A stretch of 56,134 bases of DNA, taken from NCBI GenBank assembly GCA_000995965.1, contig LBYD01000002.1, positions 336,563 to 392,696 on the forward strand, given 5' to 3'. The stretch is from Candidatus Moranbacteria bacterium GW2011_GWC2_40_12. Its GTDB lineage: Bacteria > Patescibacteriota > Minisyncoccia > Moranbacterales > UBA11712. Below are positions 455-50,997 of this stretch, piece by piece (position 1 is the first letter of the stretch; every line of letters begins with the position of its first letter). The notes beneath the pieces are model-generated. The model worked only from the letters and a program-made list of their open reading frames with translations. It was not told the origin of the DNA and made no database searches. Both the position numbers and the translations under genes were made by a program.

Positions 455-534
455 ATGATTTCTCTACGAATTACGAATCATATACGAATATGCGAATAAT
501 TTTAGGTGATTTTAGTATATAACCATCCGGCGAT

Positions 535-1143
535 TTAATCAAGCTTGCGTATGTTGAAAATAATAATGGATATATTTATCAAAAAAGTTATTCCCAAAAC
601 GATTCCAACAAGCCAACTCGTGAACTCTCCTTTCTGGATGACGAGAAAATTGAAGAGAAGATGGATGAATGCCGGAGGGACAACCGTTCGCATTGCCAGA
701 AATCTCACATTTCTTTCCCGGCTGGCGATGAGCGCTGAAATAAGGAAAAAAGTGAGAATATGAAGCAAGCCAATAGCTGAAAGGGAGAAAAGAGTGTCGC
801 TGTCAAGGCTGCCAATATCCCAAATCTTTTTCCTGTTAGTGAGAAGAATGAGAAATATTTCCGCTGCGCCAAAGAACGATCCGGCGACGAGAGACGCCGC
901 GAAGAATTTGAATCGGTTGAGATTGAAATATCCCCGCAAAATGAAAACAGCGGAAAAATATTTGAAACTTTCTTCAATAATGGCCGAAGCGACGAGAAAA
1001 AAAGTGAGATTATTATACACTTCAAAAATTATTTCTTTTCGGTAAAAAATGTTTACGACGACGGCCAGAAATTGTTCAGCGGCGACGGATGCCAGAGCCA
1101 TCAAGACTCCAGCAAGCGGGGCGCCAAGAAGAATGCTCGTCAT
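535..1143 (-). CDS. PrsW-like intramembrane protease (multi-pass membrane protein)
   Basis: 202-aa ORF with multiple hydrophobic segments. It has the motifs IIEESFKY (EExxK), FGAAE and FIHLLFN (HxxxN), as in the PrsW family. It overlaps the tsaD stop by 4 nt. Confidence 0.5.
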   Translation of the reverse strand: MTSILLGAPLAGVLMALASVAAEQFLAVVVNIFYRKEIIFEVYNNLTFFLVASAIIEESFKYFSAVFILRGYFNLNRFKFFAASLVAGSFFGAAEIFLILLTNRKKIWDIGSLDSDTLFSLSAIGLLHILTFFLISALIASRERNVRFLAMRTVVPPAFIHLLFNFLVIQKGEFTSWLVGIVLGITFLINISIIIFNIRKLD

Positions 1144-2282
1144 TTGTTTAGCCTTAAGTTTGCGTCAGCTTCGAGATTTCTCCATGTATTATAAAACGGT
1201 TTGCGGTTTTTCGAAAATTCCCACTTGAAATATCCGGCGGCGGCGATCATCACGGCGTTGTCCATTGAGTATTTTGCATCTGGTATCTGATATTTTGTAT
1301 TTGGCATAACTTCCTTTATTTTTTCACCCAATTGTTTTCTGAGTTCCTTGTTTGCCGAAACTCCTCCGCCGAGGAGGATCGTTTTCGGCTTGAATTTTTT
1401 GGCGGCTCGGATTGTTTTTGAAACCAGCACGTCAATCACGGCTTGCTGAAACTCGGCGCAGAGTTCGCCGGTGATTTTTTTGCTTTTTAGAATTCGAGGA
1501 TGGTCACGGACAGTATAAAGAAGGGCTGTTTTTAGCCCAGAAAAAGAAAAATTGAAATCAGGGGAATTGAGCATCGGTCTCGGCAAAGCTTGGCTTTGAG
1601 GAATTCCCGGGCGTTTAGTCGGGAAAGGGAAAATCCGAGCTTTAGCCGATGTTTGGAATTTATCAGCATAAGCGGAGACTATTGGTCCTCCGGGATATCC
1701 CAATCCCAAAATCTTCGCCGCTTTGTCAAAGGCTTCTCCGGCTGCGTCGTCAAGTGTCTGTCCGACAATCCTGAAATCCATATGTTTTTTCATGAGAATC
1801 AGCTCCGTATGCCCGCCGGAAACGATTAGGGCCAAAATAGGGAACCTGATAAGGTTCGACCTTGAGGAATTTCCTGACGGATAGTCCGGAAAGGGAAAGG
1901 TCGAATCTTGCAAAAAATTCGAGTAAATATGACCAACCACGTGGTGAACTCCCACCAGCGGTTTTTTCCAGGCATAAGCCAGGGTTTTCGCCGCGTTTGT
2001 TCCGATGAGAAGCGCTGGAATAAGTCCGGGACCCTGTGTGACGGCGATCAAATCAACATTGTTTTGCCTGATTTTATTTTTCGCAATGATCTTTTTGAGG
2101 AGCAAGGGCAGATTTTTGAGGTGATCCCGGGCGGCAAGATTGGGGACGACGCCGCCGAACGGGGCGTGCGTTTTTGTTTGGGAAGAGACATAATCATCCA
2201 TGACAAAAAAATTGCCCTTTTCCGCTTTCACGAGGGCAACAGCCGTGTCGTCGCAGGATGTTTCAATAGCAAGAATTTGCAT
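1140..2282 (-). CDS. tsaD: tRNA N6-adenosine threonylcarbamoyltransferase TsaD (Kae1/OSGEP family), carrying two in-frame repeat insertions
   Basis: MQILAIETSCDDTAVALV..., HHVVGH, LALIVSGGHTEL, DFNFSFSGLKTA, GGGVSAN. I moved the start to the internal Met at 2282, because the track ORF extends upstream to 2333. Confidence 0.9.
   Translation of the reverse strand: MQILAIETSCDDTAVALVKAEKGNFFVMDDYVSSQTKTHAPFGGVVPNLAARDHLKNLPLLLKKIIAKNKIRQNNVDLIAVTQGPGLIPALLIGTNAAKTLAYAWKKPLVGVHHVVGHIYSNFLQDSTFPFPDYPSGNSSRSNLIRFPILALIVSGGHTELILMKKHMDFRIVGQTLDDAAGEAFDKAAKILGLGYPGGPIVSAYADKFQTSAKARIFPFPTKRPGIPQSQALPRPMLNSPDFNFSFSGLKTALLYTVRDHPRILKSKKITGELCAEFQQAVIDVLVSKTIRAAKKFKPKTILLGGGVSANKELRKQLGEKIKEVMPNTKYQIPDAKYSMDNAVMIAAAGYFKWEFSKNRKPFYNTWRNLEADANLRLNK
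1584..1643 (-). repeat. 60-nt AAAGC-hairpin element, copy D (in frame inside tsaD)
   Basis: The reverse complement reads aaagctcggattttccctttcccgactaaacgcccgggaattcctcaaagccaagctttg. It is about 75% identical, over the same 60-nt length, to the intergenic copy at 14549-14608. Confidence 0.75.
1851..1910 (-). repeat. Diverged second copy (E) of the same element inside tsaD
   Basis: It shares the blocks ttgaggaatt and ggaaagggaaa and the terminal AAGG/CTT hairpin words with copy D. It has the same orientation and frame and a length of about 60 nt. Confidence 0.55.
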
Positions 2283-2394: not shown

Positions 2395-2466
2395 GCCGCT
2401 ATCGTCTAGTGGTTAGGACAGCGGGTTTTCAATCCGTTAACCGGGGTTCGATTCCCCGTAGCGGTA
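2395..2466 (+). tRNA. tRNA-Glu (anticodon UUC)
   Basis: Cloverleaf folded by hand. Acceptor GCCGCTA/TAGCGGT, D arm GTCT/GGAC, anticodon stem GCGGG/TCCGT with loop TTTTCAA, T arm CGGGG-TTCGATT-CCCCG, discriminator A. No CCA is encoded. Confidence 0.9.
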
Positions 2467-3964
2467 CTAACAGCGATTTATTCGCGCCAAAAGTCTTGTT
2501 TAGTTCATATATAAGCCCCATTCGGGCGGTTCCAAATCCTTCGTCTCTTTTATACGAAATCCCCTCGGGAAATACCATTTTTTGGAACCTCGAATGTGAT
2601 TGCGACAAATCCAGCCATTGCCTGCCAAGATCGCTGATAAAATTGTTAGCATAAGATAAAATCCCTTCAACATCAAATTGATCAATCCTTGTTTCGCTCA
2701 AGGATATTTTTGTTGCCACGATTTCATTTTCAATTTCTTCTTTGCGTTCTTGAAATTCTTTCTGGCTGTATGATCCGTCTTCCCGCATTTCAAATATTCT
2801 CTTTCTTTTCCCATCCAAAATAGCAATTTGCCTTTCATATTTTTGGGCGTCCATTCTGAAATCTTTGCCCTTTTCCTCCCATAAGTCCAAAATTGTCGCT
2901 TTGAAGATTGCCAAAAACTTTTCTTTCGGTGTTCTTCGCTTGAGTTCGGCGACAAAATCTTCTTCCAGTTTCTTTTTGTTTATCGCTTTGCCATACATCG
3001 CACAATCTCTATTCCGGCAATGATAATATAAATACTTTCCGCCGTTCCCAGTGGAACAGCTTCCCGTCAAAGGCATTCCGCAATGACCGCAAAGAACAGT
3101 CCGCTTGAGCGGGAAATTGGGATTCAATCGGTTGTGCTTCACTCTGTTTGATCTTCCCGATAAAATAATTTCGATTTTATGATATTCTTCTTTGGTTATC
3201 ATAGGCTTATGGATTCCTCGAATTTCCTCTTTTGTCCACGGGTTCACTAGAATACCGGCGTAAAATTTCAAATGATTGCAAAATATCTTGCTCACGAATT
3301 GAGGACGGGTCTTTTTTCCTCGTATTTTGCTTAATCCCAGCTTATCAAATAGATTCAGCATCTCCGCTTGCGAATAGAGCCCTTTGGAAAATTCTTTCAG
3401 CCCCTTTTGAATAATGGGGAATATTTCTTCGTGCGGTTTGTCGGGTTCGTTTTTCTTTTCGCCCCTTTTCTTGGTTTGCGGGCTAATATAGCCAATTGGC
3501 GGTTGCCACGGATTTATTCCTTGATTCAACCTCGAAATCATTCCGTCAACACATCTTTGTTTTCTCACGGCATTGTCAAATTCAGCACTGCCAGCCAGCA
3601 CCGTTTCAACGAATTTCTCGGCTGGATTATTGCCAATCGGTTCCGAAACAGAATTGAGCGTAGCCCCATAATCAAGAAGCATTTTTCGCACGTAAAAATG
3701 ATCTTCCGTATTTCTCGCGAAGCGATCCACCTTGTAGACTACAAAAGCGTCAATCTTGCCTTTGTTTTTCCGGCAAAATTCAATAGCTCGCAAAAACTCG
3801 GCTCGATCCGCCGTCTTGGCTGAAGCCCCTTCTTCTCGGAAAACAGCCAAGACTTCAATGCCTCGATCTTTGCAGAAATTCCGGCAAAGCTCCTCTTGAT
3901 GTTCGAGAGAAGTGCCTTTGACTTGCTCCTCGCTTGATACTCTTGTATAGATTATGCCTTTCAT
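2429..3964 (-). CDS. Large serine recombinase (resolvase catalytic domain, recombinase domain, zinc ribbon and coiled coil)
   Basis: N-terminus MKGIIYTRVSSEEQ...VVYKVDRFARN. Zinc ribbon CGHCGMPLTGS...YYHCRNRDC. The last ~12 codons are antisense to the 3' half of tRNA-Glu, and the stop codon lies in the anticodon loop. Confidence 0.9.
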   Translation of the reverse strand: MKGIIYTRVSSEEQVKGTSLEHQEELCRNFCKDRGIEVLAVFREEGASAKTADRAEFLRAIEFCRKNKGKIDAFVVYKVDRFARNTEDHFYVRKMLLDYGATLNSVSEPIGNNPAEKFVETVLAGSAEFDNAVRKQRCVDGMISRLNQGINPWQPPIGYISPQTKKRGEKKNEPDKPHEEIFPIIQKGLKEFSKGLYSQAEMLNLFDKLGLSKIRGKKTRPQFVSKIFCNHLKFYAGILVNPWTKEEIRGIHKPMITKEEYHKIEIILSGRSNRVKHNRLNPNFPLKRTVLCGHCGMPLTGSCSTGNGGKYLYYHCRNRDCAMYGKAINKKKLEEDFVAELKRRTPKEKFLAIFKATILDLWEEKGKDFRMDAQKYERQIAILDGKRKRIFEMREDGSYSQKEFQERKEEIENEIVATKISLSETRIDQFDVEGILSYANNFISDLGRQWLDLSQSHSRFQKMVFPEGISYKRDEGFGTARMGLIYELNKTFGANKSLLVPLRGIEPRLTD

Positions 3965-3981
3965 TTTTTTTATAACTAAAA

Positions 3982-4076
3982 GGACGGTTCTGGTGAATCC
4001 AACAAACTAAAAGCCTGTTAGCAGAACCGCCCATTTAGTCGGACGATAATGGCTTTTAGTATTTCATTGGATTCAC
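3982..4076. repeat. Nested imperfect inverted repeats between the two recombinase genes
   Basis: gtgaatccaacaaactaaaagcc (3993-4015) pairs with ggcttttagtatttcattggattcac (4051-4076). ggacggttctg (3982-3992) pairs with cagaaccgccc (4022-4032). Confidence 0.6.
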
Positions 4077-4097
4077 ACTTATATCATAGGCGAAATT

Positions 4098-5240
4098 TCA
4101 ATCTTGAGCAAGATTATCAGCTATATTCCGCAAATATTCCGCAAATTCCTTTTTATTCGAGTTTACTGCTATATTCCCTAAAATCTTTTCGCTTTTTTCA
4201 TTATTAAGTTTAATACCCTGCACAATTTCAATTTGTCTATCCTCGGCAATTTTTCCATAGCCGTATGATCCAAAAGTCGTTCCAACATCATTATGTCCCA
4301 AATTTTGACTGATTGCCTTTTTTTGTTCTTCGGTTAAGGGACTTTGAATAAACTCTTTTACTATCAAATCCCGAAATATATGGGGTTTATAATACGGAAC
4401 ACCGGCTTTGATAAATCTTTTTTCAAGTATTTTTCTCACGGAACTGCCGCTTTTCCAAAAAATCGGTTCAATTTCTCCCGTGCTAAAGTAGCAAATATTT
4501 TCGGCTCCTTGCTCTTTTTTGGTCGCGGGGAAAATCGGATCATCCGGTTTGAATTTTTTTTCTTTGACTAAATAATCATACCAACTCGTGAAATAATCCA
4601 AGGGCTTTGCAAACGAAAGAGGAACAAGAGCAGTTGTTATTCTTTTGCGAAGCTTGGTTTTTATCTCAAAATTTGGATCTTGATCAATGACCAGCTTATT
4701 TCTATCAAAACTTTTTATCGGCAAGCTTATCAGTGCGGAAAGCCTGATTCCAGAAAGATAAAGCAAGGATATTATAGCTCTATCCCTATTATCAACGTCA
4801 TTCTTCACCTCAATACTCTCAATAACCGTCTTTATTTCTTCCACCGTTGGAACATTCTTTTTTTTGCTTTGAATAGCCGCTCTGGTTTCGTTTCTTGAAA
4901 GCTTCAAGCAATTGATAAATGACGGGTTGATTCTTGATCTGTATTTCGGTTGCAAGGCTAACCATTCGAAAAATGATCGTAGCAGCCTCAAAATGTTATA
5001 GGCGTAGCTTAGGCTTATTTTTTCTTCCGTGTTTTTCTTTTTCCTATTTTTCAACCAATCTCGAAATTCAACCGCTTGTTTTTTGTTGAAATTGGAAAAG
5101 TCGGCATTTTTCGTGAAATCCTGCCAATTCAAAATAGATTTTTCGAAAGCGGCGATTGAATCTTCCGAAAATCTTTCAATGTCTCTCAAATACTCAAAAT
5201 AATCTCTTTTCGCCATTTCATTTTTTTGCAATGTGTTCAT
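4098..5240 (-). CDS. Tyrosine recombinase / phage-type integrase
   Basis: SAM-like N-terminal domain. Catalytic signature GIRLSAL..., KPHIFRDLIV (HxxR), LGHNDVGTTFGSYGYG (catalytic Tyr region). Confidence 0.85.
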   Translation of the reverse strand: MNTLQKNEMAKRDYFEYLRDIERFSEDSIAAFEKSILNWQDFTKNADFSNFNKKQAVEFRDWLKNRKKKNTEEKISLSYAYNILRLLRSFFEWLALQPKYRSRINPSFINCLKLSRNETRAAIQSKKKNVPTVEEIKTVIESIEVKNDVDNRDRAIISLLYLSGIRLSALISLPIKSFDRNKLVIDQDPNFEIKTKLRKRITTALVPLSFAKPLDYFTSWYDYLVKEKKFKPDDPIFPATKKEQGAENICYFSTGEIEPIFWKSGSSVRKILEKRFIKAGVPYYKPHIFRDLIVKEFIQSPLTEEQKKAISQNLGHNDVGTTFGSYGYGKIAEDRQIEIVQGIKLNNEKSEKILGNIAVNSNKKEFAEYLRNIADNLAQD

Positions 5241-14188: not shown

Positions 14189-14461
14189 ATGAAAAAGAAA
14201 GAGCTTGTGGAAGCCATCGTGGCAAAAACCGAGATGGCGAAAAAGGACGTTCTTATGGTCCTTGAAACAATGACGGAAGTCGTGAAAAGCACTGTCACAA
14301 AAGAGGCAGTCGAAATTCCGGGGATCGTGAAGATCGAGAAAAAACATCGAGCCGCCCGGATGGGGCGCAATCCGATGACCGGAGAATCTATCAGCATTCC
14401 GGCCAAGACTGTGCTGAAAGCCCGGGTTCTCAAGAAGCTCAAGGATGCGGTGATGAAGTAG
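14189..14461 (+). CDS. hup: DNA-binding protein HU
   Basis: MKKKELVEAIVAKTEMAKKDV...RMGRNPMTGESISIPAKTVLKARVLKKLKDAV. HU/IHF fold signature, 90 aa. Confidence 0.9.
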   Translation: MKKKELVEAIVAKTEMAKKDVLMVLETMTEVVKSTVTKEAVEIPGIVKIEKKHRAARMGRNPMTGESISIPAKTVLKARVLKKLKDAVMK

Positions 14462-14464
14462 TTC

Positions 14465-14541
14465 AAAGTTCGACTCTAGGCGGAGCCGATAGTCGAACTT
14501 TTCGAAACAAAGGATTCCGCAGTAATTTGCGGAATTTTTTG
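14465..14541 (+). terminator. Two consecutive hairpin terminators after hup
   Basis: agttcgact...agtcgaact followed by TTTT, then ttccgc-agtaatt-tgcggaa followed by TTTTTT. Confidence 0.7.
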
Positions 14542-14548
14542 TTTATTT

Positions 14549-14608
14549 AAAGCTCGGCTTTTTTCCTTCCCCGACTGCCGTCGTGGAATTCCTCAAAGCC
14601 AAGCTTTT
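14549..14608 (+). repeat. 60-nt AAAGC-hairpin element, copy A (intergenic)
   Basis: The sequence is aaagctcggcttttttccttccccgactgccgtcgtggaattcctcaaagccaagctttt. It has terminal mini-hairpins AAAGC-TCG-GCTTT and AAAGC-CAA-GCTTT and a central CCCCGAC-TGCC-GTCGTGG hairpin. Confidence 0.8.
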
Positions 14609-14609
14609 G

Positions 14610-14638
14610 ATCCCGCCATGATTTGCGGGGTTTTTTGT
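14610..14638 (+). terminator. Third terminator, a near duplicate of the second
   Basis: cccgc-catgattt-gcgggg plus TTTTTT. The flanks gttttttgtttgtttaaaaagc parallel ttttttgtttatttaaagc after the second terminator. Confidence 0.65.
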
Positions 14639-14725
14639 TTGTTTAAAAAGCTAAGGTTTACACTTCTTATTTTATAATGCTACAATCTTCTTGTTGACAA
14701 TAGACTATGTCGCAAGATTACGCCC

Positions 14726-16318
14726 ATGGAAAACAAGAAAAATTCCCAAATAAACGAGCCGATTGCGGAGTTTCTCGAAAAACTCAGACAGCAGCTGGAA
14801 GCTGAAAAAATCCAGAAAGCCGGAGAAAAGGAGGCAGAGATCGAGGAAACAGGCGAAAGCATGGCTCTTCTTTATGAGAAAGTAAGAAATCTCATCGAAT
14901 ACAACGATGATCATCTCATCAAGAGAAATGCCATTGAGCGAATTTTGAAACGCAATCTTCTCATTGAATTTCGCCGTGAGGATTTCACTGAACAGTTTCT
15001 CGAGGAGCTTGCCATGAGCGGATATCTTGAAAAGGGAAAAACCGGAGAGGAATTGAAAACAAAGACTGCGCGCATAATTGCCAAATACCAAAAAGCCTCG
15101 GGGGCAATTTCAGGCTATGAGGTGAAGAGGTGGCTGGTTGGCATGGCTTCCTGCGAAATCGAGGAAACTCTGTTTTCCAATCCATCCAGATTTGCCCTGG
15201 TCCGGGCCATGTATGAGACAGCGAAGAATAGAGTTGAAATCAAGGGCGCGAAAAAAGTGAAGGAGAGCGAAAAGAACATCCAAATTTTTCTTGCCGTTGT
15301 GAGATCAATCGCCAAACCGGACAATGCCATGCTCAATTTCGTCCTCTTCAAACTGTATCTTCCGGAATGGTTCAAAAAGGACCTTCCGGACAGTGAATTA
15401 GCCATGATGCTTTCCGGCTTTCCGGCGCTCATCCATTCGATCAAGATGAAAATTTCAAGCCCCGTTTCGGTGAAAATAGGAGTGGCGCTTCGCAAGTATG
15501 CCGTTTATTTCAATATTTTTTATGAGTCGGCGCTTCAAAATATTTCCAAAATAGAAAAAATCGTCGGAAATCCCGAGTCGCTCAATTTTGCGGTCCAATT
15601 GGCGGCTTCCGAAGTATACGATCGGGAGATGAGAAAGTTCTGGAAAAGAGTGAAGAGAAGCCTTTATTTTCTCATAATTACCAAAATATTTTTGGCCGTG
15701 GCGGTGGAATATCCCTTTGATTTTTATGTCATCGGACAAGTCAATACGGTTCCAATAATTATCAACCTTTTTCTTCCGCCGCTATATCTGTTGGTCCTTT
15801 CAACAACCATACGCCGCCCCAGCGACCAAAACTCCGCCCTGATTGCCAAAGGGGTCGGAGAAATTGCCTACGGCCGCGAAGAAAAGCCGATTGCCGAGAT
15901 CCGTCTTCAGGAAATCGAAACTTTCTCTGATTGGACGCTGAATCTATTTTTCATTCTCACCTACGGGATTTCATTCGGGCTTGTCATTTGGATTTTGAAT
16001 ATCTTGAATTTCAATTGGCTCGGAATCTTGATATTTCTTTTCCTTTTCAGCGTGATAAACTTTTTCAATGCCCTGGTGCGCCAGCCAGTGCGCGAACTTC
16101 TTGTCGCCCGTGAAAAAGAGGGAATGATCGGGATGCTCATAGACACCCTTTCAATGCCGTTTGTCCGGATGGGGAAGTGGATGTCGATCAACTTTTCGCG
16201 AGTCAATGTTTTTATCTTCCTTTTTGATGTTATAATAGAAGCGCCGTTCAAGGTAGTTGTCCGATTTATCCGGGAATGGGCCGGATTTATCCGAAGAAAG
16301 AAAGAGGAAGTGATTTGA
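14726..16318 (+). CDS. Hypothetical membrane protein (soluble N-terminal half, multi-TM C-terminal half)
   Basis: 530-aa ORF with about 6 hydrophobic segments after residue 310. No family recognised with confidence. Confidence 0.6.
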   Translation: MENKKNSQINEPIAEFLEKLRQQLEAEKIQKAGEKEAEIEETGESMALLYEKVRNLIEYNDDHLIKRNAIERILKRNLLIEFRREDFTEQFLEELAMSGYLEKGKTGEELKTKTARIIAKYQKASGAISGYEVKRWLVGMASCEIEETLFSNPSRFALVRAMYETAKNRVEIKGAKKVKESEKNIQIFLAVVRSIAKPDNAMLNFVLFKLYLPEWFKKDLPDSELAMMLSGFPALIHSIKMKISSPVSVKIGVALRKYAVYFNIFYESALQNISKIEKIVGNPESLNFAVQLAASEVYDREMRKFWKRVKRSLYFLIITKIFLAVAVEYPFDFYVIGQVNTVPIIINLFLPPLYLLVLSTTIRRPSDQNSALIAKGVGEIAYGREEKPIAEIRLQEIETFSDWTLNLFFILTYGISFGLVIWILNILNFNWLGILIFLFLFSVINFFNALVRQPVRELLVAREKEGMIGMLIDTLSMPFVRMGKWMSINFSRVNVFIFLFDVIIEAPFKVVVRFIREWAGFIRRKKEEVI

Positions 16319-18120: not shown

Positions 18121-18963
18121 ATGAATCCTGAAAAAAAATTCGAAAGCAACCCTTTTTTTCTGAAAGGCGACAATGGCATCGGGGTTTTGTTATTGCACGG
18201 CTGGACTTCTCCGCCAGACGAGCTCCGGCCGCTCGCGGAGCATCTCAATTCTTTCGGGTACACAGTTTCCGCCCCACTGCTTTTGGGTCATGGAACAAGG
18301 CCAGAAGACCTGGAGCATGTCAAATGGAAAGATTGGCTTTCCCAGAGCCGGGAGGAGCTTGAGAAACTGAAAGAACATTTATCCTTCGCCACAGGCGCGC
18401 TTTATAACGATACAAAAAAGGACAGGGTTTTCTATTCCGGAAAAGAACCCGTGGCGAAGGTCGAGAAAAAGATTTTTGTCGGCGGAATTTCTATGGGAGG
18501 AAACCTGGCTTTGATGGTTTCCGATGACAAATCGGTGGCCGGAATCTTCACTATGGGCGCGGCGATGCACTACAAATTGCATTACCTCGTGAAAGTGTGC
18601 CTTTTTTTCATGGGACTCACAAAAAAATACCGGAACAAATATTATCCGTTCTGGGTCCGAAAAAAAATGGGAGACCGCAAGGTATATTTGCGATATCCGA
18701 TTGAAAGCGCCAAAGAAGTCGTGCGCCTTTCCGATGCGACGCGGAAATTTTTGCCCCAGGTCACCAAACCTATTTTCATTATGCAATCAACATCCGACCA
18801 TATGGTCTCAAGAAACTCCCCGAAGATGATAACGAGTGGCGTGAAATCAAAAATCAAGGAAATATTCTGGATAGAAAATGCCTACCATGTTTTTGCAGGG
18901 AAAAAAGAGGTGTGGGAGAAAATTGAGAGTTTTATTGAAAGAATTGTGAATTGTGAATCTTGA
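18121..18963 (+). CDS. Alpha/beta-hydrolase carboxylesterase carrying an in-frame palindromic insertion
   Basis: VLLLHGWTSPPDELRPLAEHL, nucleophile elbow GGISMGG, C-terminal NAYHVF. Confidence 0.75.
   Translation: MNPEKKFESNPFFLKGDNGIGVLLLHGWTSPPDELRPLAEHLNSFGYTVSAPLLLGHGTRPEDLEHVKWKDWLSQSREELEKLKEHLSFATGALYNDTKKDRVFYSGKEPVAKVEKKIFVGGISMGGNLALMVSDDKSVAGIFTMGAAMHYKLHYLVKVCLFFMGLTKKYRNKYYPFWVRKKMGDRKVYLRYPIESAKEVVRLSDATRKFLPQVTKPIFIMQSTSDHMVSRNSPKMITSGVKSKIKEIFWIENAYHVFAGKKEVWEKIESFIERIVNCES
18383..18460 (+). repeat. 78-nt palindrome-bounded segment inside the esterase CDS
   Basis: Perfect 10-bp terminal inverted repeat ccttcgccac / gtggcgaagg. The length is 26 codons. It lies between the helix preceding the nucleophile strand and the GxSxG strand. 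Confidence 0.6.
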
Positions 18964-19083
18964 ATTGCGAATGGAAATATAGAATTTAAGAATATAGGAT
19001 TTTTTTTGTTGAGCAATCCGAGTAAATTCAATTTTCTGGATTCCTATTCTCAATTCCCAATTCTAAATTCATAATTCAAAAAA
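18938..19083. repeat. Stop-to-start word palindrome (GAATTG/CAATTC words)
   Basis: The 5' arm gaattgtgaattgtgaatcttgaattgcgaatgg... includes the esterase stop codon. The 3' arm ...attcctattctcaattcccaattctaaattcataattc ends 6 nt before the next ATG. Confidence 0.6.
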
Positions 19084-20256
19084 ATGCGGATAGCGTTTTT
19101 TACCAACAATTATCTTCCCAACCCCTTTGGTGTTTCAGGTTCCGTCGAGAGTTTCCGGAAAGAATTTGAAAATCTTGGACACGAGGTATTTGTATTTGCT
19201 CCGAAATGGCGGGGACACAAGGACGAGAATCAAAACGTTTTTCGCTATCCCGCGATTGAGACAAATATAAAAATAAAATTCCCGCTGGCATTTCCGCATT
19301 CCCTGAAGATTCGCGGGAAGCTCAAGCGTCTTCAAATTGACATTGTCCATTCCCAGCATCCCAATCTTCTCGGCAGTGCGGCGGCATATTGGGCAAAGAA
19401 AAAAAATGTTCCGCTGGTATTCACCTGGCATACGCTCTATGACCAATACGCCCATTTTGCGCCATTTGTGCCGGCAAAAATAGCCGCTTGGTGGACAATC
19501 AGAAACGCGAGAAATTATGCCAACCTGTGCGACGCAGTAATCACTCCTACGCCGTCAGTGGCAGATATAATCAAAAAGTGGGGCGTGGCAAATGAAAATA
19601 TCACGGCTATTCCGACAGGAGTGGAGGAAAAACAATTCGAAAATCCGGACAGGGAGTCCTTGAGAAAAAAATATAACATTAGAGATAATGAAATATTGCT
19701 TACTCTGATCTCGCGGCTTACCGCGGAAAAGAATGTTGGTTTTCTTCTCGATGCAGTGTTGGATATTTTACGAAATAATAAGTCCGTTAAATTCATGATT
19801 TGCGGAGACGGGAATCTCAAAAATAATTTGGAAAAAGTTGTTCGGGATAGCGGGCTCGCAGGGAGAGTGATATTTGTCGGCATTGTCTCCGGCGCCGAAA
19901 AGAAAAACTATTACGCCGCGGGGGATATTTTCGTCTATGCTTCGAAATCGGAAACGCAAGGGATGATTCTCACTGAAGCCATGTATTCCGGCCTTCCGAT
20001 TGTCGCGGTGCGGGCGACAGGAGTGCGGGATATTGTCGAAGACGGCAAAACAGGATTTTTGGTCCCGGAAAATAAGCAGGAATTTCAGGAGATGATTGAA
20101 AAATTGATCAGTGATCCAATTTTGAGAAAAGATTTTTCCGAAGAGGCGAAAAAAACGGCAAGAGAAAAATACACCGCGAAAATTTGCGCGAAAAAAATGC
20201 TGGAAGTTTATGAAAAAAGCCGAGCTTTGAAAAACTCCCGATTTATCGGGAGTTAA
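19084..20256 (+). CDS. GT4-family (GT-B) glycosyltransferase
   Basis: MRIAFFTNNYLPNPFGVSGSV..., the C-terminal motif ETQGMILTEAMYSGLPIVA and GFLV. The last ~14 codons are encoded by repeat copy C. Confidence 0.8.
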   Translation: MRIAFFTNNYLPNPFGVSGSVESFRKEFENLGHEVFVFAPKWRGHKDENQNVFRYPAIETNIKIKFPLAFPHSLKIRGKLKRLQIDIVHSQHPNLLGSAAAYWAKKKNVPLVFTWHTLYDQYAHFAPFVPAKIAAWWTIRNARNYANLCDAVITPTPSVADIIKKWGVANENITAIPTGVEEKQFENPDRESLRKKYNIRDNEILLTLISRLTAEKNVGFLLDAVLDILRNNKSVKFMICGDGNLKNNLEKVVRDSGLAGRVIFVGIVSGAEKKNYYAAGDIFVYASKSETQGMILTEAMYSGLPIVAVRATGVRDIVEDGKTGFLVPENKQEFQEMIEKLISDPILRKDFSEEAKKTAREKYTAKICAKKMLEVYEKSRALKNSRFIGS

Positions 20257-20272
20257 GAAAGGCTTGGCTTTG
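20215..20272 (-). repeat. AAAGC-hairpin element, copy C (composite, spans the GT4 stop codon)
   Basis: aaaagccgagctttg...ctcccgatttatcgggag...aaaggcttggctttg. It has the same terminal mini-hairpins in the opposite order. The centre is replaced by the CCGATTTATCGG hairpin also seen after the 16S gene. Confidence 0.6.
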
Positions 20273-31640: not shown

Positions 31641-32015
31641 ATGAACAAAAAGAAAATTATCATCGTGGAGGACGATAACTTCGTGGCAGAAGTCTATTCA
31701 ACCAAGCTCTTGGAAATGGGTCACGAGGTCCGGATTGCCCAAAACGGGGAAGAAGGCCTCAAAATGGTTGGGGAAGAAAAGCCCGACCTTATCCTTCTTG
31801 ATATTATTATGCCCGTTATGGGTGGGATCGAAATGCTTTCGGCGCTCAGAGAAAAAGAAGATTGGAAACAGATCCCGGTGATTCTTCTCACGAATGTGGG
31901 AGAAAAGGAAAGCGTTCAGAAAGTAAGGAGTCTCGGGGTTCAGGATTATCTAATAAAGTCGCATTTCACGCCCGCCGAGGTGATCGAAAAAATCGAGAAC
32001 ATTCTGGGGAAATAA
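31641..32015 (+). CDS. Stand-alone response-regulator receiver domain (CheY/PilH-like)
   Basis: KIIIVEDD, DLILLDIIMPVMGG, LLTN, K at IKSHF. There is no output domain. Confidence 0.8.
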   Translation: MNKKKIIIVEDDNFVAEVYSTKLLEMGHEVRIAQNGEEGLKMVGEEKPDLILLDIIMPVMGGIEMLSALREKEDWKQIPVILLTNVGEKESVQKVRSLGVQDYLIKSHFTPAEVIEKIENILGK

Positions 32016-32016
32016 T

Positions 32017-32146
32017 TTTTACGAATTACGAATCTCTCGTGAATATAAGAACGCAAAGAATTCGTAATCAGTACATTCGCAGAGCGAAGCGCCCGCCTGC
32101 AACGCTTTGCTCAGCAATGCGGGCAGGTATTCGTAATTTGTAAAGA
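32017..32146 (-). repeat. 130-nt MITE-like element, copy 1 (inverted relative to copy 2)
   Basis: The reverse complement is about 92% identical (about 10 mismatches in 128 nt, hand alignment) to 42190-42320. Termini are TACGAATTACGAAT / ATTCGTAATTCGTA. There is an internal GC-rich hairpin gcccgc...gcgggc. Confidence 0.85.
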
Positions 32147-32151
32147 ACATC

Positions 32152-33228
32152 ATGGAAAACAGAACGCAAACCGAAACAAAATTCATGAGTTATCTTGAAA
32201 TTGTGGCCAGCCAAAACGCCTCTGACCTTCATTTGTGCGTGGGCCGTCCGCCGATTATCCGGATTGACGGAAAGCTTTTTCCGGTTGCCGGGGAAGAGAA
32301 GCTGTCCGATCAGGCCATGATTGATATCACGAAAGCAATTCTGAATGAAGAACAGCAGAAAAAGTTTCAGGACGCAAAGCAGATTGATTTTTCTGTCGAC
32401 CTTCACGGGAAAGCCCGCTTCCGGGCCAATATCTATTATCAAAAAGGGACAATCAGTGCTGCTTTCCGGCTGATTCCCACAAAAATAAAAACGCTTGACG
32501 AGCTCAATCTGCCGCCGGCTCTTTATGAACTCACCAAGCCGTCCCAGGGTTTTGTCCTTATCACCGGACCTTGCGGCCACGGAAAATCAACGACGATGGC
32601 GGCGCTTATCGATCAGATCAACCATTCGCGCCAGGATCATATCATCACGATCGAAGATCCGATTGAGTATATTTTTGACCCGGATATGTGTATAATTGAC
32701 CAAAGGGAAATTTTTCAGGACGCGACGGCTTTTGGAACGGCTCTCCGGGCGGTTTTCCGGGAGGACGCGGACGTCGTGATGGTTGGCGAGATGCGCGACC
32801 TTGAAACCATCAGTACCGCTATCACGGCGGCGGAAACGGGCCATTTGATTTTCGCGACGCTCCACACCAATGATGCCGCCCAAACCATCGATCGGATGGT
32901 GGATGTGTTCCCGTCCCATCAGCAAAACCAGATTCGAATGCAGCTGGCCCAGACTCTTCTCGGGATTGTTTCCCAAAGGCTGGTCGGCCGGACGGACGGC
33001 GGGAGAGTTCCAGCCGTGGAAATCCTCTACAATTCGAACGCAGTCGCCAACCTCATCCGGGAAGGGAAAACTCACCAGATAAACCTTGTTATTGAAACAT
33101 CCCGCGAGCAGGGGATGGTTTCTCTCAACAATTCTCTGGCGGAACTTGTGAAAAGGGGAATAGTTTCATTTGAAGAAGCCGAAACCTACTCGACAAACCG
33201 GGAAGAACTGAAGATATTGCTTAGATAA
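32152..33228 (+). CDS. pilT: Twitching-motility (retraction) ATPase PilT
   Basis: ASDLHL, GPCGHGKSTT, the Asp box, and ATLHTNDAAQTIDR. Confidence 0.9.
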   Translation: MENRTQTETKFMSYLEIVASQNASDLHLCVGRPPIIRIDGKLFPVAGEEKLSDQAMIDITKAILNEEQQKKFQDAKQIDFSVDLHGKARFRANIYYQKGTISAAFRLIPTKIKTLDELNLPPALYELTKPSQGFVLITGPCGHGKSTTMAALIDQINHSRQDHIITIEDPIEYIFDPDMCIIDQREIFQDATAFGTALRAVFREDADVVMVGEMRDLETISTAITAAETGHLIFATLHTNDAAQTIDRMVDVFPSHQQNQIRMQLAQTLLGIVSQRLVGRTDGGRVPAVEILYNSNAVANLIREGKTHQINLVIETSREQGMVSLNNSLAELVKRGIVSFEEAETYSTNREELKILLR

Positions 33229-33294
33229 TATTTACGAATTTATATTTTTTTTCCATATTCGCATATTCGTAAACGATTCGTAATTCGTAAAGAA
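33229..33294. repeat. Stop-to-start TACGAAT/ATTCGTA word palindrome
   Basis: tttacgaatttata...attcgcatattcgtaaacgattcgtaattcgtaaag fills the whole pilT-pilC spacer. Confidence 0.6.
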
Positions 33295-33297
33295 ACC

Positions 33298-34572: not shown

Positions 34573-34998
34573 ATGAAAAAAACAAAAAATTGGAAAAAGG
34601 GTTTCACGCTGGTCGAACTTCTGATCGTAATCGCGATTATCGGAATTTTGGCGGCGGTAGTGTTGATCAGCTTGGGTTCGCAAAGAGAACGGGCAAGAAA
34701 GACTGCGTTTAAACAAGGAATGGCGTCTTTGTCAGCTCCTCTATCAATCTGTCGAGATCAAGGAGGAGATATTACTGCATATGCAGAGAACCAGAGTGTC
34801 TGTAGTGATCCCGCATATGTTCCCAATGCTGATTGGCCGCCCTTTAAAGATTGCGGGACAGCACCTGCGCCAACTCCGATTGTAGTTTTGGGTAATTCTG
34901 ATTCTTGGACAGTTTCGGCGTCATGCGCAGGATCTGCGGGGCAATGTGATGCTGTTTGCAACAGTGCGGGCTGTAAATTCTCGGGTATGTGTGATTAA
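34573..34998 (+). CDS. Type IV pilin (probable major pilin)
   Basis: Prepilin leader [32 protein letters not shown]-terminal Cys residues. Followed by a strong hairpin. Confidence 0.85.
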   Translation: MKKTKNWKKGFTLVELLIVIAIIGILAAVVLISLGSQRERARKTAFKQGMASLSAPLSICRDQGGDITAYAENQSVCSDPAYVPNADWPPFKDCGTAPAPTPIVVLGNSDSWTVSASCAGSAGQCDAVCNSAGCKFSGMCD

Positions 34999-35038
34999 GT
35001 CTAGTTTATTTAATTGCTGATTTTTCATTCTCAATTCA

Positions 35039-35066
35039 GGCTTCGACAAGAAAGTCTGTCGAAGCC
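35039..35066 (+). terminator. Perfect 10-bp hairpin after the first pilin gene
   Basis: ggcttcgaca-agaaagtc-tgtcgaagcc. There is no clear T tract, so it may be an attenuator or stabiliser rather than a full terminator. Confidence 0.45.
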
Positions 35067-35098
35067 CTTGTTGAGGACGTAAAATTTAAAGTAAAAAA

Positions 35099-35545
35099 AT
35101 GAAAAGCAAAAAAAAGAACAGGGGCTTCACCCTTATCGAACTGCTGGTGGTAATGGCGATCATCGGAATCTTGGCGGGAGTAGTTTTGGTGTCCATGTCG
35201 AGTTTTCGGGAGCAAGCGAGGGAGTCGGCGGCCTTGCAAACAGCCACGAGCATAATGCCGGCGGCGATAAAATGCGCGATGGAAGGAAAAAAATTGGAAA
35301 CGGATGCATTTAAGAAACCTGTCGTGGGAACTGCGATCTGCGAAGGATCAAGTTTCACCTGGCCGGAAGTTGGCACCGGCAGTACGATCGGTTGGCGGTG
35401 GGATACAACTGATGAGGATGCACAGGGAGTATATTATACCTTGTTTAATCCAGACAGGACAAAAACTATCGCGTGTCCTGTTACAAATACCTTTTGGACA
35501 GCAGATCCCTATAATATACATCCCGGATCCTGCGGGATATACTAG
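35099..35545 (+). CDS. Type IV pilin paralogue
   Basis: KKNRG/FTLIELLVVMAIIGILAGVVL. Confidence 0.85.
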   Translation: MKSKKKNRGFTLIELLVVMAIIGILAGVVLVSMSSFREQARESAALQTATSIMPAAIKCAMEGKKLETDAFKKPVVGTAICEGSSFTWPEVGTGSTIGWRWDTTDEDAQGVYYTLFNPDRTKTIACPVTNTFWTADPYNIHPGSCGIY

Positions 35546-35566
35546 CTCGAGCTAAAAAATGAAAAT

Positions 35567-36058
35567 ATGAACAAAAAAATAAATGGAAAAACGGGTTTCA
35601 CCCTGATCGAACTGATGGTCGCCGTCGCCATCATCGGAATCCTCGCGGGAGTGGTGCTGGTGCAGATGCAGGGATACGCCAAAGACGCCCGGGCCACCAA
35701 AGCCATTGCCCAGCTCTCGAGCGTGATTCCGTCAATGTACAGCTGTTGGGGCAACGGCGGAAAAGTCAATGTGCCAGGCCAAAACGGAGGAGCTGATGTA
35801 TGTTCAACAAATCCGTCTTATGGAAAGTGGCCAAATTTTACTTCCGATATGGATTCTTATGATTTCACTGTTTCTGTTGAAAATGACAGTAATCAGCCGG
35901 ATTATTGTGCGTCTCCGGGATGCATAAACAAAGATGCTTGGTATGTTTATGTTGATAGCAATTCGGATAATAAGCGAATTTGCTGCAACTTGGCAATGAA
36001 AAGCTGTAAAGCTGATATTTCCGGCTCGCAATGTACAGCGGCAGTACCAAGCAATTAG
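35567..36058 (+). CDS. Type IV pilin paralogue
   Basis: NGKTG/FTLIELMVAVAIIGILAGVVL. Confidence 0.85.
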   Translation: MNKKINGKTGFTLIELMVAVAIIGILAGVVLVQMQGYAKDARATKAIAQLSSVIPSMYSCWGNGGKVNVPGQNGGADVCSTNPSYGKWPNFTSDMDSYDFTVSVENDSNQPDYCASPGCINKDAWYVYVDSNSDNKRICCNLAMKSCKADISGSQCTAAVPSN

Positions 36059-36178
36059 CCGTTTTTTTAACAACCGATATTAGAAAAATACATGTCGATA
36101 ATGAATATACGAAAATGATTCGTATATTCGTAAGAGATTTGTAATTCGTAAAGACTAATCTAGAAGGGCGGTGAAAAA

Positions 36179-36589
36179 ATGAAAACAAACAAAAAAGGTT
36201 TCACGCTGGTTGAGCTTCTCGTCGTGATCGCGATCATTGGAATTTTGGCGGCGATCGTGCTGGTGAGTCTCCAGAGCGCGAAAAACAAGGCAAAGCTCGC
36301 ATCATTCCGCTCAAGCGCGGTGAGCGTCAATCCGGCGGCCATGAGCTGCGCGGATGAGAATATCCTCGCAGTGGCGTCGGTCGCTCCGGGAGATGACATT
36401 TGCGCGGACACGACCGTTGAAGACAGCGTATATCCCGTTCTTGCCAACGGCGTTTGCGACGGAAACACCTATACGGTTGTCGCGACAGATGCGACGTCGG
36501 CCGATGGACAATATCAGGTTGTCATGACCTGCACCATTGCTGGAACGGCAAGAGTGGTCACTTGCACCGAAGCCGGATGCACGCCATAA
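36179..36589 (+). CDS. Type IV pilin paralogue
   Basis: [25 protein letters not shown]. Its 5' UTR is nearly identical to that of the first pilin. Confidence 0.85.
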
Positions 36590-36775
36590 TTTGTATTGAA
36601 AATTTTTCCATTTCGTCCCTCTCTTTGCGAAGGGAGGGATCATGGCGGAAAAATATTTTTGCGGCGTGAATGAGTCTGCTAAAGACGTCCATAAATTCCA
36701 AAATTGTATTTTTGGTCGAAGAAATCCGTATGTTCGCAAAAGATTCGTAATTCGCGTAATTCGTATGGTATTCAC

Positions 36776-37603
36776 ATGATTGCAATTTTCTTCATTGTCG
36801 GGCTTATTGTCGGAAGCTTCCTCGGGGCGACCAACTATCGTATCAAAATCGCCGAAGATATCGTTTGGAAGCGCTCCCACTGCCCCCGATGCAAAAAAAA
36901 GATTCGCTGGTATGACAACGTGCCACTTTTGAGTTTTGTCATTCTTTGGGGAAAGTGCCGCGAATGCGAAAAGAATATTTCCTGGAAATATCCGGCTATC
37001 GAGCTTCTGACAGGGATCCTTTATGCGGCCGTGGCCTGGAAATTTTTGGGCGGTTGGGGAATATCAGCGGAAAAGATACTCACCGGGGGAGACGTGGTGG
37101 AGATGTCTTTCTGGCTTTTCACTTCCAGCTATCTGGTTCTCATTTTTTTCCACGATCTGAGCTATATGCTCATACCGGATGCGGCGGTTTTTCCGGCGAT
37201 TGTCGTCACCCTTCTTTTTCAATATTGGAAATATCTCCAGGGTCCGCTTGGGATCGCGACTCTCAAGAATCCTTTCGTCGGCGCTGTTTTTGCGGCGCTT
37301 GTCGCGTCCTGTTTCTTCTTTTTTCTCATTTGGGTTTCGCGCGGAAAATGGATCGGTGGAGGTGACGTGAAACTCGGATTCCTGGCGGGAGCGATTGTCG
37401 GCTGGCCAAAAATATTGTTTGTTCTCTTTTTTGCCTATATGATCGGAGCGATCGCGAGCCTGTCGCTGATCTGGATGAAGAAAAAAACCTGGAAAAGCCA
37501 GATTCCTTTCGGACCGTTCATCGTGGCGGGAATTCTCATCGTCATGTTTTTTTCTGAACAAATCCAATTTTGGGCCAACCGGTATTTGAATATAGGGTAC
37601 TAA
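36776..37603 (+). CDS. pilD: Prepilin peptidase / N-methyltransferase PilD
   Basis: Zinc motif CPRCKKKIRWYDNVP...CRECEKNI, about 7 TM segments, and the catalytic Asp regions HDLSYMLIPD and GGGDVKL. Start placed at ATG 36776. Confidence 0.85.
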   Translation: MIAIFFIVGLIVGSFLGATNYRIKIAEDIVWKRSHCPRCKKKIRWYDNVPLLSFVILWGKCRECEKNISWKYPAIELLTGILYAAVAWKFLGGWGISAEKILTGGDVVEMSFWLFTSSYLVLIFFHDLSYMLIPDAAVFPAIVVTLLFQYWKYLQGPLGIATLKNPFVGAVFAALVASCFFFFLIWVSRGKWIGGGDVKLGFLAGAIVGWPKILFVLFFAYMIGAIASLSLIWMKKKTWKSQIPFGPFIVAGILIVMFFSEQIQFWANRYLNIGY

Positions 37604-37663
37604 ATTTTCAAATGTATATATCAGGCCTCATAATGATCGGAAAATTTGGAAATTGATAACTTC

Positions 37664-38239
37664 ATGAAAATTGAGAATTTAAAGTTCAAAATTGAAAAAA
37701 AGGGCTTCACTTTGATCGAACTTCTGGTCGTCATGGCGATTGTTTCGATTCTGACGGCCGTTGTTTTGGTGAACTTGGGCAAAAACGATGATCAGGATGT
37801 GAGAACGGAGAAAGACAGGCTTGTCACTTTTTTGCGTGAAATGCAGAATAAGGCGCTGGCGGTGGACAAAAATGATGTCAGCTTGGGAGCTGACGAAAAA
37901 CTTTGCGGTTTTGGGGTATCCGGCGGAGTCGGAGATGCTGATTTTCTGGACACATACTATATAAAGACAACAACGGCGGCAACCAGCGGCCTGGACCAGG
38001 ATTGCGCCGGGCTGGCCAGCGCTGATTCTCCGCGAACCTTGTACAGCAGCCGTTTTTATCTCAATAAAGACGTGAAGCTTGATTTGGCCGGCAATATTTT
38101 TTTTCTGGTTCCCGGCGCCGACGTCTATTATGCCGGGAGCCGCAGTTCCGGTGATTTTCCAGTGACAATAAATCTCAAAAAATCGGGCGTGAATGTTCCC
38201 GTCAAAATTGACCTGTCTGGAAGAATCTATTCAAATTAA
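37664..38239 (+). CDS. Minor pilin / pseudopilin
   Basis: KKG/FTLIELLVVMAIVSILTAVVL. Confidence 0.7.
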   Translation: MKIENLKFKIEKKGFTLIELLVVMAIVSILTAVVLVNLGKNDDQDVRTEKDRLVTFLREMQNKALAVDKNDVSLGADEKLCGFGVSGGVGDADFLDTYYIKTTTAATSGLDQDCAGLASADSPRTLYSSRFYLNKDVKLDLAGNIFFLVPGADVYYAGSRSSGDFPVTINLKKSGVNVPVKIDLSGRIYSN

Positions 38240-38838: not shown

Positions 38839-38854
38839 TTTTCACAGCTGAAAA

Positions 38855-39625: not shown

Positions 39626-41761
<2,136 letters not shown>

Positions 41762-41898
41762 TCATAATTTAAGAATTGTGAATTGAGATTTTTGAATTCA
41801 GAATGGGAATAAAGAATCATGAATAAAGGTTTCTTGATTGCTCTATATTCGACATCCCATATTCCCATTCACAATTCATAATTCCAAATTCTAAATTC
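41762..41898. repeat. Stop-to-start word palindrome (GAATTG/GAATGGGAATA words)
   Basis: agaatgggaata pairs perfectly with tattcccattc. The 3' arm ...cacaattcataattccaaattctaaattc abuts the gatC ATG and is related to the 3' arm at 19040-19077. Confidence 0.65.
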
Positions 41899-42186: not shown

Positions 42187-42189
42187 AAT

Positions 42190-42320
42190 TATTTACGAAT
42201 TACGAATACCTGCCCGCATTGCTGCGCAAAGCGTTGCAGGCGGGCGCCTCGCTCTGCGAATATACTGATTTCGAATTCTTTGCGTTCGTATATTCGTAAG
42301 AGATTCGTAATTCGCAAAGA
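42190..42320 (+). repeat. 130-nt MITE-like element, copy 2
   Basis: See copy 1. It fills the gatC-gatA spacer. The track ORF 42189..42386 (-) is its spurious translation. Confidence 0.85.
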
Positions 42321-42327
42321 ATAGGCC

Positions 42328-50957: not shown

Positions 50958-50997
<40 letters not shown>

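Follow-up and report, generated by a model that had tools for sequence, protein, structure and literature searches.

A palindromic element in tsaD, ligA, and intergenic DNA

This analysis concerns a short palindromic DNA element found at four sites in a 56,134-nt stretch of the genome of Candidatus Moranbacteria bacterium GW2011_GWC2_40_12 (contig LBYD01000002.1, positions 336,563 to 392,696; “the window” hereafter means this whole stretch). Two of the four sites lie within tsaD, which encodes a tRNA t6A transferase subunit (1140..2282, minus strand; the open reading frame (ORF) is open to 2333, with a likely start at ATG 2282, MQILAIETSCDD). An initial annotation of the window had proposed that two in-frame segments of tsaD are copies of a single 60-nt hairpin repeat that also occurs between genes. 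That interpretation was essentially right, and the two tsaD copies are a small part of the phenomenon.

The first tsaD copy has a 59-nt core at 1585..1643. Its better-folding strand, here called strand X, is the plus strand and is therefore antisense to the gene. It scores 64.4 bits (E 9e-18) with a covariance model of the family, has the layout AAAGCTTGGCTTT-GAGGAA-stem/loop-GGGA-AAATCCGAGCTTT with a partly decayed inner stem, and corresponds to the peptide ..KARIFPFPTKRPGIPQSQA.. in codon phase 0. The second copy (1851..1909, plus strand, 70.9 bits) has a second arm type, AAGGTTCGACCTT / AAGGTCGAATCTT, and corresponds to the peptide ..DSTFPFPDYPSGNSSRSNL.. in codon phase 1. The peptides quoted in the initial annotation are present in the translation of the tsaD ORF. 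The third copy is intergenic (14549..14607, minus strand, 65.2 bits), 88 nt 3' of an HU-like gene (14189-14461, plus strand) and upstream of an ORF at 14726-16318 (plus strand). The fourth lies in a second host gene, ligA, which encodes NAD-dependent DNA ligase (39635..41761, plus strand); this copy (40923..40981, minus strand, 72.7 bits) sits in the zinc finger, with one cysteine pair on either side (CPICGG ... HYCQNKKC).

Several approaches agree that these segments are copies of one element. A hidden Markov model (HMM) trained solely on 96 copies from other genomes recovers just the four copies in the window (E 8.6e-15 to 1.2e-11) and nothing else in it below E 0.1, and the covariance model, run with all filters off, gives the four full copies 64-73 bits. 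Pairwise, the four are identical at 37-50 of 59 positions, with alignment scores of 9-38 as against no more than 4-9 in 1000 shuffles, and the loop pattern TTGAGGAA..GGRAARGRAA matches the window three times and 100 shuffled versions not at all. A repeat search of the window reported a direct repeat within tsaD (1585-1632 vs 1851-1898, 77% identity), an exact 23-nt reverse-complement match between 1585-1607 and 14585-14607, and a further match at 40963-40985 in ligA, a copy that the initial annotation had missed. Hence, the similarity is far beyond that of shuffled controls. Two figures given at the outset need adjustment. The identity between a tsaD copy and the intergenic copy, put at about 75%, is higher for the first tsaD copy (50/59; the two tsaD copies match each other at 42/59), and the 60-nt unit is correct as the length of the insert, the palindromic core being 59 nt plus one base.

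Anatomy and fold of the element

Along strand X, the element consists of a 13-nt arm (AAAGCTTGGCTTT or AAGGTTYGACCTT), the motif GAGGAA, a variable 10-bp stem with a 3-9-nt loop, the motif GGRA, and the complementary arm. The two motifs make up a conserved, asymmetric, purine-rich internal loop (5' GAGGAA, 3' GGRA). The core is 56, 59, or 62 nt long and, with one additional base, gives an insert of 57, 60, or 63 nt. Folding energies for strand X are -21.6 to -33.7 kcal/mol, with z from -2.5 to -5.7; on account of wobble pairs, the opposite strand folds less favorably. Of 95 distinct sequences, 73 have a U.G wobble at arm pair 7, a pair that can thus be formed by one strand only. Inner stems often hold tandem G.A/A.G pairs and GNNA-type loops.

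The fold is supported by the pattern of substitutions. Across an alignment of 100 copies (described below), 92.4% of pair cells are standard, compared with 76.4% after shuffling, and none of 500 shuffles reaches the observed value. The 13-nt arms pair in 98.6% of cells, and pairing falls to 37-59% when the partner column is slid along the alignment. Changes on both sides are seen for all 10 inner-stem pairs and for four arm pairs, and at least three arm types coexist in one genome, co-varying as pairs. Each 13-nt arm is itself nearly palindromic (AAAGC-NNN-GCTTT), and this motif has 16 matches in the window with at most one mismatch, as against 5.1 expected. The small terminal hairpins first noticed in tsaD are thus real, as the arms are near-palindromes; the dominant fold, however, is arm-to-arm pairing.

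No Rfam family matches the element at the gathering score, and permissive scans of the copies likewise returned no family; at the intergenic site they gave chance, terminator-like matches with scores well under the threshold, and in tsaD they gave nothing. The hairpin strand has the look of a Kt-7-type kink-turn, for which the consensus is a bulge of three nucleotides and, after it, tandem G.A and A.G pairs (PMC5061560, PMC4382518). The 5' GAG-GA-A and 3' ..G-GA sequences fit this consensus where the 3' loop is GGGA. As a firm claim, a kink-turn RNA was nevertheless rejected: the non-bulged side has 4 nt rather than 3, many copies read GGAA and so place A.A where A.G is required, and the candidate strand is antisense to the host message in 67 of the 78 copies within genes, with both orientations occurring among intergenic copies.

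Related hairpins occur in the window. Hairpins are crowded into the spacer that holds the intergenic copy (14462-14725): first come an arms-only palindrome and a terminator-like hairpin, then the full element, and after it the duplicate of the terminator-like hairpin and a solo arm. The arms-only palindrome (37 nt, 14465..14501, AAAGTTCGACT ... AGTCGAACTTT; no strand assigned, E 7e-5 on both strands) has a third arm type, lacks the internal-loop motifs, and lies directly 3' of the stop codon of the HU-like gene. Two 39-nt direct repeats on the plus strand (14513-14551 and 14609-14647, 82% identical), each a terminator-like hairpin with a T-run, bracket the element, and a solo arm-like 13-mer, AAAGCTAAGGTTT, follows at 14647-14659. 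The bracketing duplication looks like a local tandem duplication. Elsewhere, a degenerate or related 56-nt hairpin (20216..20271, plus strand, 31.8 bits, E 2e-7) has family arms, AAAGCCGAGCTTT ... AAGGCTTGGCTTT, that flank a different inner hairpin, CTCCCGATTTATCGGGAG; it covers the final codons and stop of a GT4 glycosyltransferase gene (19084-20256).

A family in Moranbacteria-type genomes

How widely is the element distributed? The initial annotation had called for a consensus or covariance model and a wider scan, and these reveal a dispersed family. One genome per bacterial or archaeal species was searched with the pattern TTGAGGAA-N18-28-GGRAAA-N2-3-YCGARYYTT, which leaves the 5' arm unspecified. 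The scan returned at least 109 loci and at least 123 matches in all, including the window's four; family counts here and below are among the matches listed. In 100 of the 123, the 5' arm can pair with the 3' arm at no fewer than 11 of the 13 positions (86 at all 13). For the other 23, which come from unrelated taxa such as Corynebacterium and Nitrospira, only 3-9 positions pair. The 100 true copies come from the window and about 21 metagenome-assembled genomes (MAGs) labelled Moranbacteria, Moraniibacteriota, Parcubacteria, or Patescibacteria, together with three MAGs labelled Bathyarchaeia or Bdellovibrionales. The latter, named “Candidatus Bathyarchaeia archaeon” and “uncultured Bdellovibrionales”, are DATGZC01 (loci L001, L003, L016, L026, L030, L068, L082, L094, L097, and L103), CAZFIH01 (L010, L050, L061, and L091), and CAYTIK01 (L100). 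Their labels are probably wrong, given that LepA of DATGZC is 85% identical to LepA of a Moraniibacteriota MAG. The covariance model adds about a dozen copies in the same loci, with the 5' loop variants GGGGAA, GAAGAA, and GCGGAA, and also finds arms-only palindromes of 36-38 nt in other Moranbacteria loci. The distribution is best explained by a family that is specific to Moranbacteria-type genomes of the candidate phyla radiation (CPR).

A phage origin was also considered; the pattern has no match in 2.9 million viral contigs, and this origin was rejected on that absence.

Relation to genes and reading frames

The element is found mostly within genes. Tabulated as the initial annotation had suggested, 78 of the 100 copies fall within ORFs that run for 150 aa or more with no stop, with strand X antisense in 67 and sense in 11, and the other 22 are intergenic. 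The inserts are 60 nt (n=68), 57 nt (n=19), or 63 nt (n=5) long, such that 92 of 100 are multiples of three. The hosts belong to 32 gene families, led by LigA (10 copies), CCA-adding enzyme (7), and TsaD (5), and others include TatD, Mur ligase, MurB, MiaA, MiaB, MnmA, TsaE, LepA, UvrA, LeuRS, ArgRS, PolX, and glycosyltransferases. Intergenic copies separate complete, different genes, and none of the five tested splits a gene. Their orientation to neighboring genes is mixed; the heuristic used for orientation is noisy (it chose a spurious ORF over the HU-like gene in the window) and supports “mixed” at most. Given this mixture, the orientation bias of the genic copies is best ascribed to what can be translated.

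The sequence is permissive for translation in nearly every frame. Five of the six frames are free of stops in 75-92% of copies, compared with 31% for shuffled sequence; the sixth is always shut by the TGA of TTTGAGG. Host genes read the element in three antisense and two sense frames. Among antisense genic copies, the three frames occur in the ratio 30:33:4, giving KARLFP.., SSAFPF.., and, rarely, KLGFSL.. peptides. The same variation is seen within a single gene: the two tsaD copies, at gene offsets 639 (codon phase 0) and 373 (phase 1), are read in different frames. Hence, the conserved unit is the nucleotide sequence and not the peptide.

Recurrent loops in TsaD and LigA

Window TsaD has 16 and 17 extra residues relative to Thermotoga TsaD (PDB 6nak), at exactly the two insert sites. 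Each copy preserves the frame and adds residues, as had been proposed. In an AlphaFold2 model of window TsaD (predicted template-modeling score (pTM) 0.81), residues 126-142 and 214-230 have a predicted local distance difference test (pLDDT) score below 50 and no secondary structure, and the inserts sit between well-modelled elements. Flexible loops fit this model, which does not prove the surface exposure that had been expected.

Relatives differ at the same positions. Among 120 LigA relatives (63-77% identical), many have a short zinc-finger loop, “IIKTGKKGEE”. Others carry the element there, either in the frame QSSAFPF...SSKPSF or in the frame SKVRPFP...IPQGRTF, and one (P0168) has one copy nested inside another. 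Still others have unrelated repeats: HKDTKTQNTK...YQIPDTKL, SPSNSPFNKGGEAIAEGDF, or HNMEHGTK...LHAPCSMLH. TsaD relatives show the same mixture of short loops, element, and other repeats at both sites, and at some orthologous sites the subfamily or the frame differs. Apart from the organism itself, no TsaD or LigA relative exceeds 78% identity. Alignment of orthologues thus shows loops that are short, filled by the element in different frames, or filled by unrelated repeats. A single homologous loop shared by all relatives, the outcome that would have spoken for an ordinary extension of the protein, is not what is seen, since the loops vary and copies are dispersed in intergenic DNA and in at least 20 other gene families. 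The two TsaD loops and the LigA zinc-finger loop appear, from these alignments, to be recurrent landing pads.

The other repeats in these loops deserve mention in their own right. HNMEHGTK..LHAPCSMLH occurs in proteins P0086, P0150, and P0174, and SPSNSPFNKGGEAIAEGDF in P0131, P0138, P0153, and P0154, at the same TsaD and LigA loops; both are probably the products of other palindromic element families. AT-rich intergenic repeats (TTCGTAATTCGTAA.., GAATTGTGAATTG..) are common in the window (460-500, 18939-19081, 33258-33296, 36119-36157, 41771-41902, and 42285-42323). The TsaD and LigA loops of relatives P0004, P0025, P0038, P0088, P0121, and P0159 hold peptides such as KYQIPDTRYQ and NFQFPISNFQ. 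To judge from the peptides, these look like in-frame translations of repeats of the AT-rich kind. More than one repeat family may therefore be entering coding loops in the Moranbacteria lineage, as far as the peptides indicate.

Signs of copying and excess conservation

Some copies are nearly identical at unrelated sites. Within single MAGs, there are eight pairs whose cores differ at no more than 2 of 59 positions while the 60 flanking bases are unrelated, including one identical pair; between species-level MAGs, there are about 30 such pairs, several of them identical. Copies also nest: in about one copy in 10, an outer arm and GAGGAATT lead straight into a complete element, after which comes the outer 3' arm. 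In addition, the flanks extend the helix by at least four Watson-Crick pairs in 20 of the 100 copies, and by at least six in 16 of these 20; in 19 of the 20, exactly one unpaired base lies 3' of the core. The average for re-paired control flanks is 6.5. The elements thus tend to sit at the tips of larger hairpins.

The element is also better conserved than the genes that carry it. In 33 pairs of orthologous host genes that carry the element at one and the same position, third-codon-position identity is 73% within the element (458/628) and 49% elsewhere (7512/15347). Several pairs reach 90-95% in the element with about 50% in the host gene, and between window tsaD and its JAVHPA orthologue the values are 83% in the element and 48% in the rest.

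What is the element?

[quoted passage not shown] We consider this the best explanation, with a probability of roughly 0.6. Mobility and a “selfish” nature are suggested by the distribution of the copies; the mobilizing enzyme and a rule that targets hairpin tips are likewise putative. Specifically, the element would be copied at the DNA level by an enzyme acting in trans that recognizes the arms or the folded hairpin, and new copies would land by preference where a hairpin already has its tip, the inner hairpin of an older copy being one such place. Because the length is divisible by three and five frames are free of stops, insertion into a permissive surface loop would merely lengthen that loop, adding about 20 residues that are mostly Ser/Pro/Gly/Lys-rich. 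Copies tolerated in this way could outlive purifying selection and would be transcribed and translated with the host protein, whereas disruptive insertions would be lost, leaving the recurrent “landing-pad” loops: two in TsaD and the zinc-finger loop in LigA.

Several observations weigh against a mobile element of this kind. First, no direct repeat that would mark a target-site duplication was seen in the flanks, only a purine preference and the one extra base 3' of the core. Second, no transposase and no larger element bounded by the arms was found in about 600 kb of fetched loci and the window. Third, the antisense bias of genic copies (86%) exceeds the 62% expected from open frames alone. 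Fourth, translation of the insert with its host protein is predicted from intact frames, not from proteomics; the predicted junction-spanning peptides include ..IFPFPTK.. and ..RPGIPQSQALPR... Fifth, the element is more conserved than its host gene, and simple decay of an old selfish insert fails to predict this excess. Possible sources of the excess are re-insertion, gene conversion from conserved master copies, and selection on the hairpin sequence. Re-insertion or gene conversion is favored because subfamilies are swapped at orthologous sites.

A parent transposon with the same ends was sought in these loci and the window, where all orphan ends are explained by nested copies.

The excess conservation is also an argument for the main alternative, which we regard as unlikely: that the hairpin is a functional nucleic acid module kept within genes by selection, with dispersal a secondary matter. 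It might, for instance, be bound by a host protein as DNA or RNA, affect mRNA stability or translation pausing as a hairpin, or belong to an antisense RNA with a kink-turn-like loop. In addition to the third-position identity of orthologous copies, this model would account for the identical cores in different species, the co-varying stems, the U.G wobble at arm pair 7, the inner stems with tandem G.A/A.G pairs and GNNA-type loops, and the 5' loop variants GGGGAA, GAAGAA, and GCGGAA, which alter only positions in the would-be kink-turn bulge. However, orthologous loops may be empty or may carry another subfamily, frame, or repeat family, so no site needs the element, and recent re-insertion or gene conversion from conserved master copies explains the conservation equally well. 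A strand-specific role in RNA is made unlikely by the mixed orientation of intergenic copies combined with the antisense position of the better-folding strand in 86% of genic copies; moreover, the fit to the kink-turn consensus is not a clean one, and no Rfam family matches. A bolder version, decidedly unlikely in our estimation, holds that the element is a selected, structured DNA or RNA module with a dedicated recognizing protein, continually re-installed at defined surface loops of essential genes. If so, Moranbacteria would rewrite short loops of their housekeeping proteins and not just tolerate junk in them, and the 73% vs 49% identity, the identical cores across species, the hairpin-tip targeting, and the nesting would be signatures of that machinery.

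It has to be considered a long shot that the arms serve in recognition, either by a protein that binds or recombines DNA or in DNA uptake, with the hairpins being by-products of paired sites spread by recombination. The near-palindromic 13-nt arms do resemble dimer-binding sites and are in excess in the window; they occur alone and as arms-only palindromes of 36-38 nt; and the window encodes pilin-like genes and several recombinases. Known DNA uptake sequences occur roughly once per kb. The arms are far less dense, and the coexistence of at least three co-varying arm types in one genome is unlike a single uptake or binding sequence. This model also leaves the conserved internal loop, the fixed 57/60/63-nt lengths, and the nesting unexplained.

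Removal of the insert after transcription or translation, in the manner of an intron or intein, such that mature TsaD and LigA would lack it, is very improbable. The outer stem does join both junctions, CPR genomes are rich in introns, and the 16S rRNA gene in the window has a group I intron. However, an excised element would need neither a length divisible by three (92%) nor stop-free frames (75-92%), and no copy interrupts a gene with a stop. Thus, intron-like excision is contradicted by the conservation of frame, length, and freedom from stop codons, and no split gene was found among the five intergenic copies tested. Furthermore, at 59 nt the element has no catalytic core and matches no intron family, and its frame-dependent peptides are incompatible with an intein fold. 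Finally, although relatives also carry extra residues at the same two TsaD positions, ordinary lineage-specific loops with coincidental or low-complexity nucleotide similarity can be dismissed, given E 1e-11 to 9e-15 with the independent model and 100 listed copies with co-varying stems, in different frames, in unrelated genes and intergenic DNA.

What are the implications of a mobile hairpin that is translated within its host proteins? First, it would be a concrete source of the lineage-specific insertions by which CPR proteins become longer and harder to annotate and align. Second, its copies would mark loops in TsaD, LigA, and aminoacyl-tRNA synthetases that naturally tolerate insertion. 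Third, the element may serve as a taxon marker: it flags Moranbacteria contigs and has exposed apparently mislabelled MAGs. Fourth, it raises the question of what enzyme could move a hairpin of 59 nt, seemingly to the tips of hairpins, and of why the copies are more conserved than the genes that host them.

Neighboring features of the window

Beside tsaD, a large serine recombinase ORF (2429-3964, minus strand) runs with its 3' end into a tRNA gene (2395-2466), and a tyrosine integrase gene (4098-5240, minus strand) adjoins the ORF. To judge from its gene content, the region 2395-5240 looks like an integrated mobile element directly beside tsaD. A group I intron (Rfam RF00028, 52789-53163) with a LAGLIDADG ORF at 52895-53533 splits the 16S rRNA gene (50952-53613) close to the 3' end of the gene, and the gene's anti-Shine-Dalgarno end, GGATCACCTCCTTTCTA, lies after the intron at about 53597-53613. 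Upstream of the intron, 1894 nt are matched to a 1533-nt model, so this part of the gene must contain further insertions. Directly after the end of the 16S rRNA gene lies a 36-nt direct repeat with 97% identity and a separation of 1042 nt (53621-53656 and 54663-54698). The hairpin CTCCGATTTATCGGAG is part of it, and a tyrosine integrase gene (54822-55763) comes next. The repeat and integrase region may be a small integrated element, as its layout suggests.

Two features lie near ligA. A 140-nt inverted repeat (32013-32152 vs 42184-42323; 89% identical, 10 kb apart) brackets ligA and a cluster of pilin-like genes. Its features include a GC-rich hairpin of its own and flanks of the CGAATTACGAAT type; it represents a second repeat family or, possibly, the ends of a larger unit. 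Within the bracketed region, at least five to seven small genes at 34573-39523 share, at the DNA level, an N-terminus of the prepilin type (94-nt repeat family D1), which identifies this as a putative type IV pilin-like locus.

Comparison with known systems

A full-text literature search, with incomplete coverage, gave no account of such elements in CPR or Moranbacteria. The closest parallel is the one drawn in the initial annotation, with RPEs, and it holds for behavior but not for membership of that group. RPEs are described as palindromic, about 100-150 bp long, and inserted in frame in many unrelated genes, with one conserved peptide per family (Ogata et al. 2000 and 2002, as summarized in PMC10969869). 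By that description, both are palindromic repeats found in intergenic DNA and in many unrelated housekeeping genes, in frame and with a tolerated added peptide, in hosts with small, reduced genomes, and in both cases the mobilizing enzyme is an open question. The present element differs from RPEs as so described in its length (57-63 nt), in being read in three antisense and two sense frames rather than as one peptide, and in its distribution, with 78% of listed copies being genic as against about half or less for RPEs. It also nests and repeatedly fills the same loop, and its hosts are Patescibacteria/CPR. The two are set apart here by their descriptions.

Intragenic bacterial MITEs, such as ERIC/RU, Correia, and the Anabaena MITEs, are likewise short, multicopy, and hairpin-forming, with terminal inverted repeats, no transposase gene, and occasional in-frame fusion to host ORFs (PMC10969869, PMC2759123, PMC2229807). 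Unlike the element, these families lie mostly between genes, and they have recognizable target-site duplications and parent insertion sequences, neither of which was seen here in the flanks and loci covered. In size the element is at the very bottom of the MITE range. Repetitive extragenic palindromes (REPs) and bacterial interspersed mosaic elements (BIMEs), which are mobilized by REP-associated tyrosine transposases (RAYTs; Y1 HUH transposases), are hairpins of similar size with subfamilies conserved across species, and structure-dependent recognition is plausible for both them and the element. REP hairpins are themselves insertion targets for some insertion sequences. However, REPs are extragenic and have a conserved 5' GTAG-type tetranucleotide, whereas the element is mostly genic and its flanks have no conserved tetranucleotide.

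Outside bacteria, the GC-cluster or double-hairpin elements of fungal mitochondria are hairpin repeats in essential coding genes and can be likened to the element. The coding palindromes of Nematomorpha mitochondria are inverted-repeat hairpins translated inside essential genes, and they too have been read as selfish DNA limited by the tolerance of the protein (PMC6649704). Both groups differ from the element in being organellar and mostly longer, with perfect repeats and no conserved asymmetric internal loop, and they have no sequence relation to it. If the element is indeed mobile, it would be a second, independent large-scale case of selfish DNA within protein-coding genes, again in a bacterium with a tiny genome but with a much smaller unit of about 60 nt that leaves five of six frames open.

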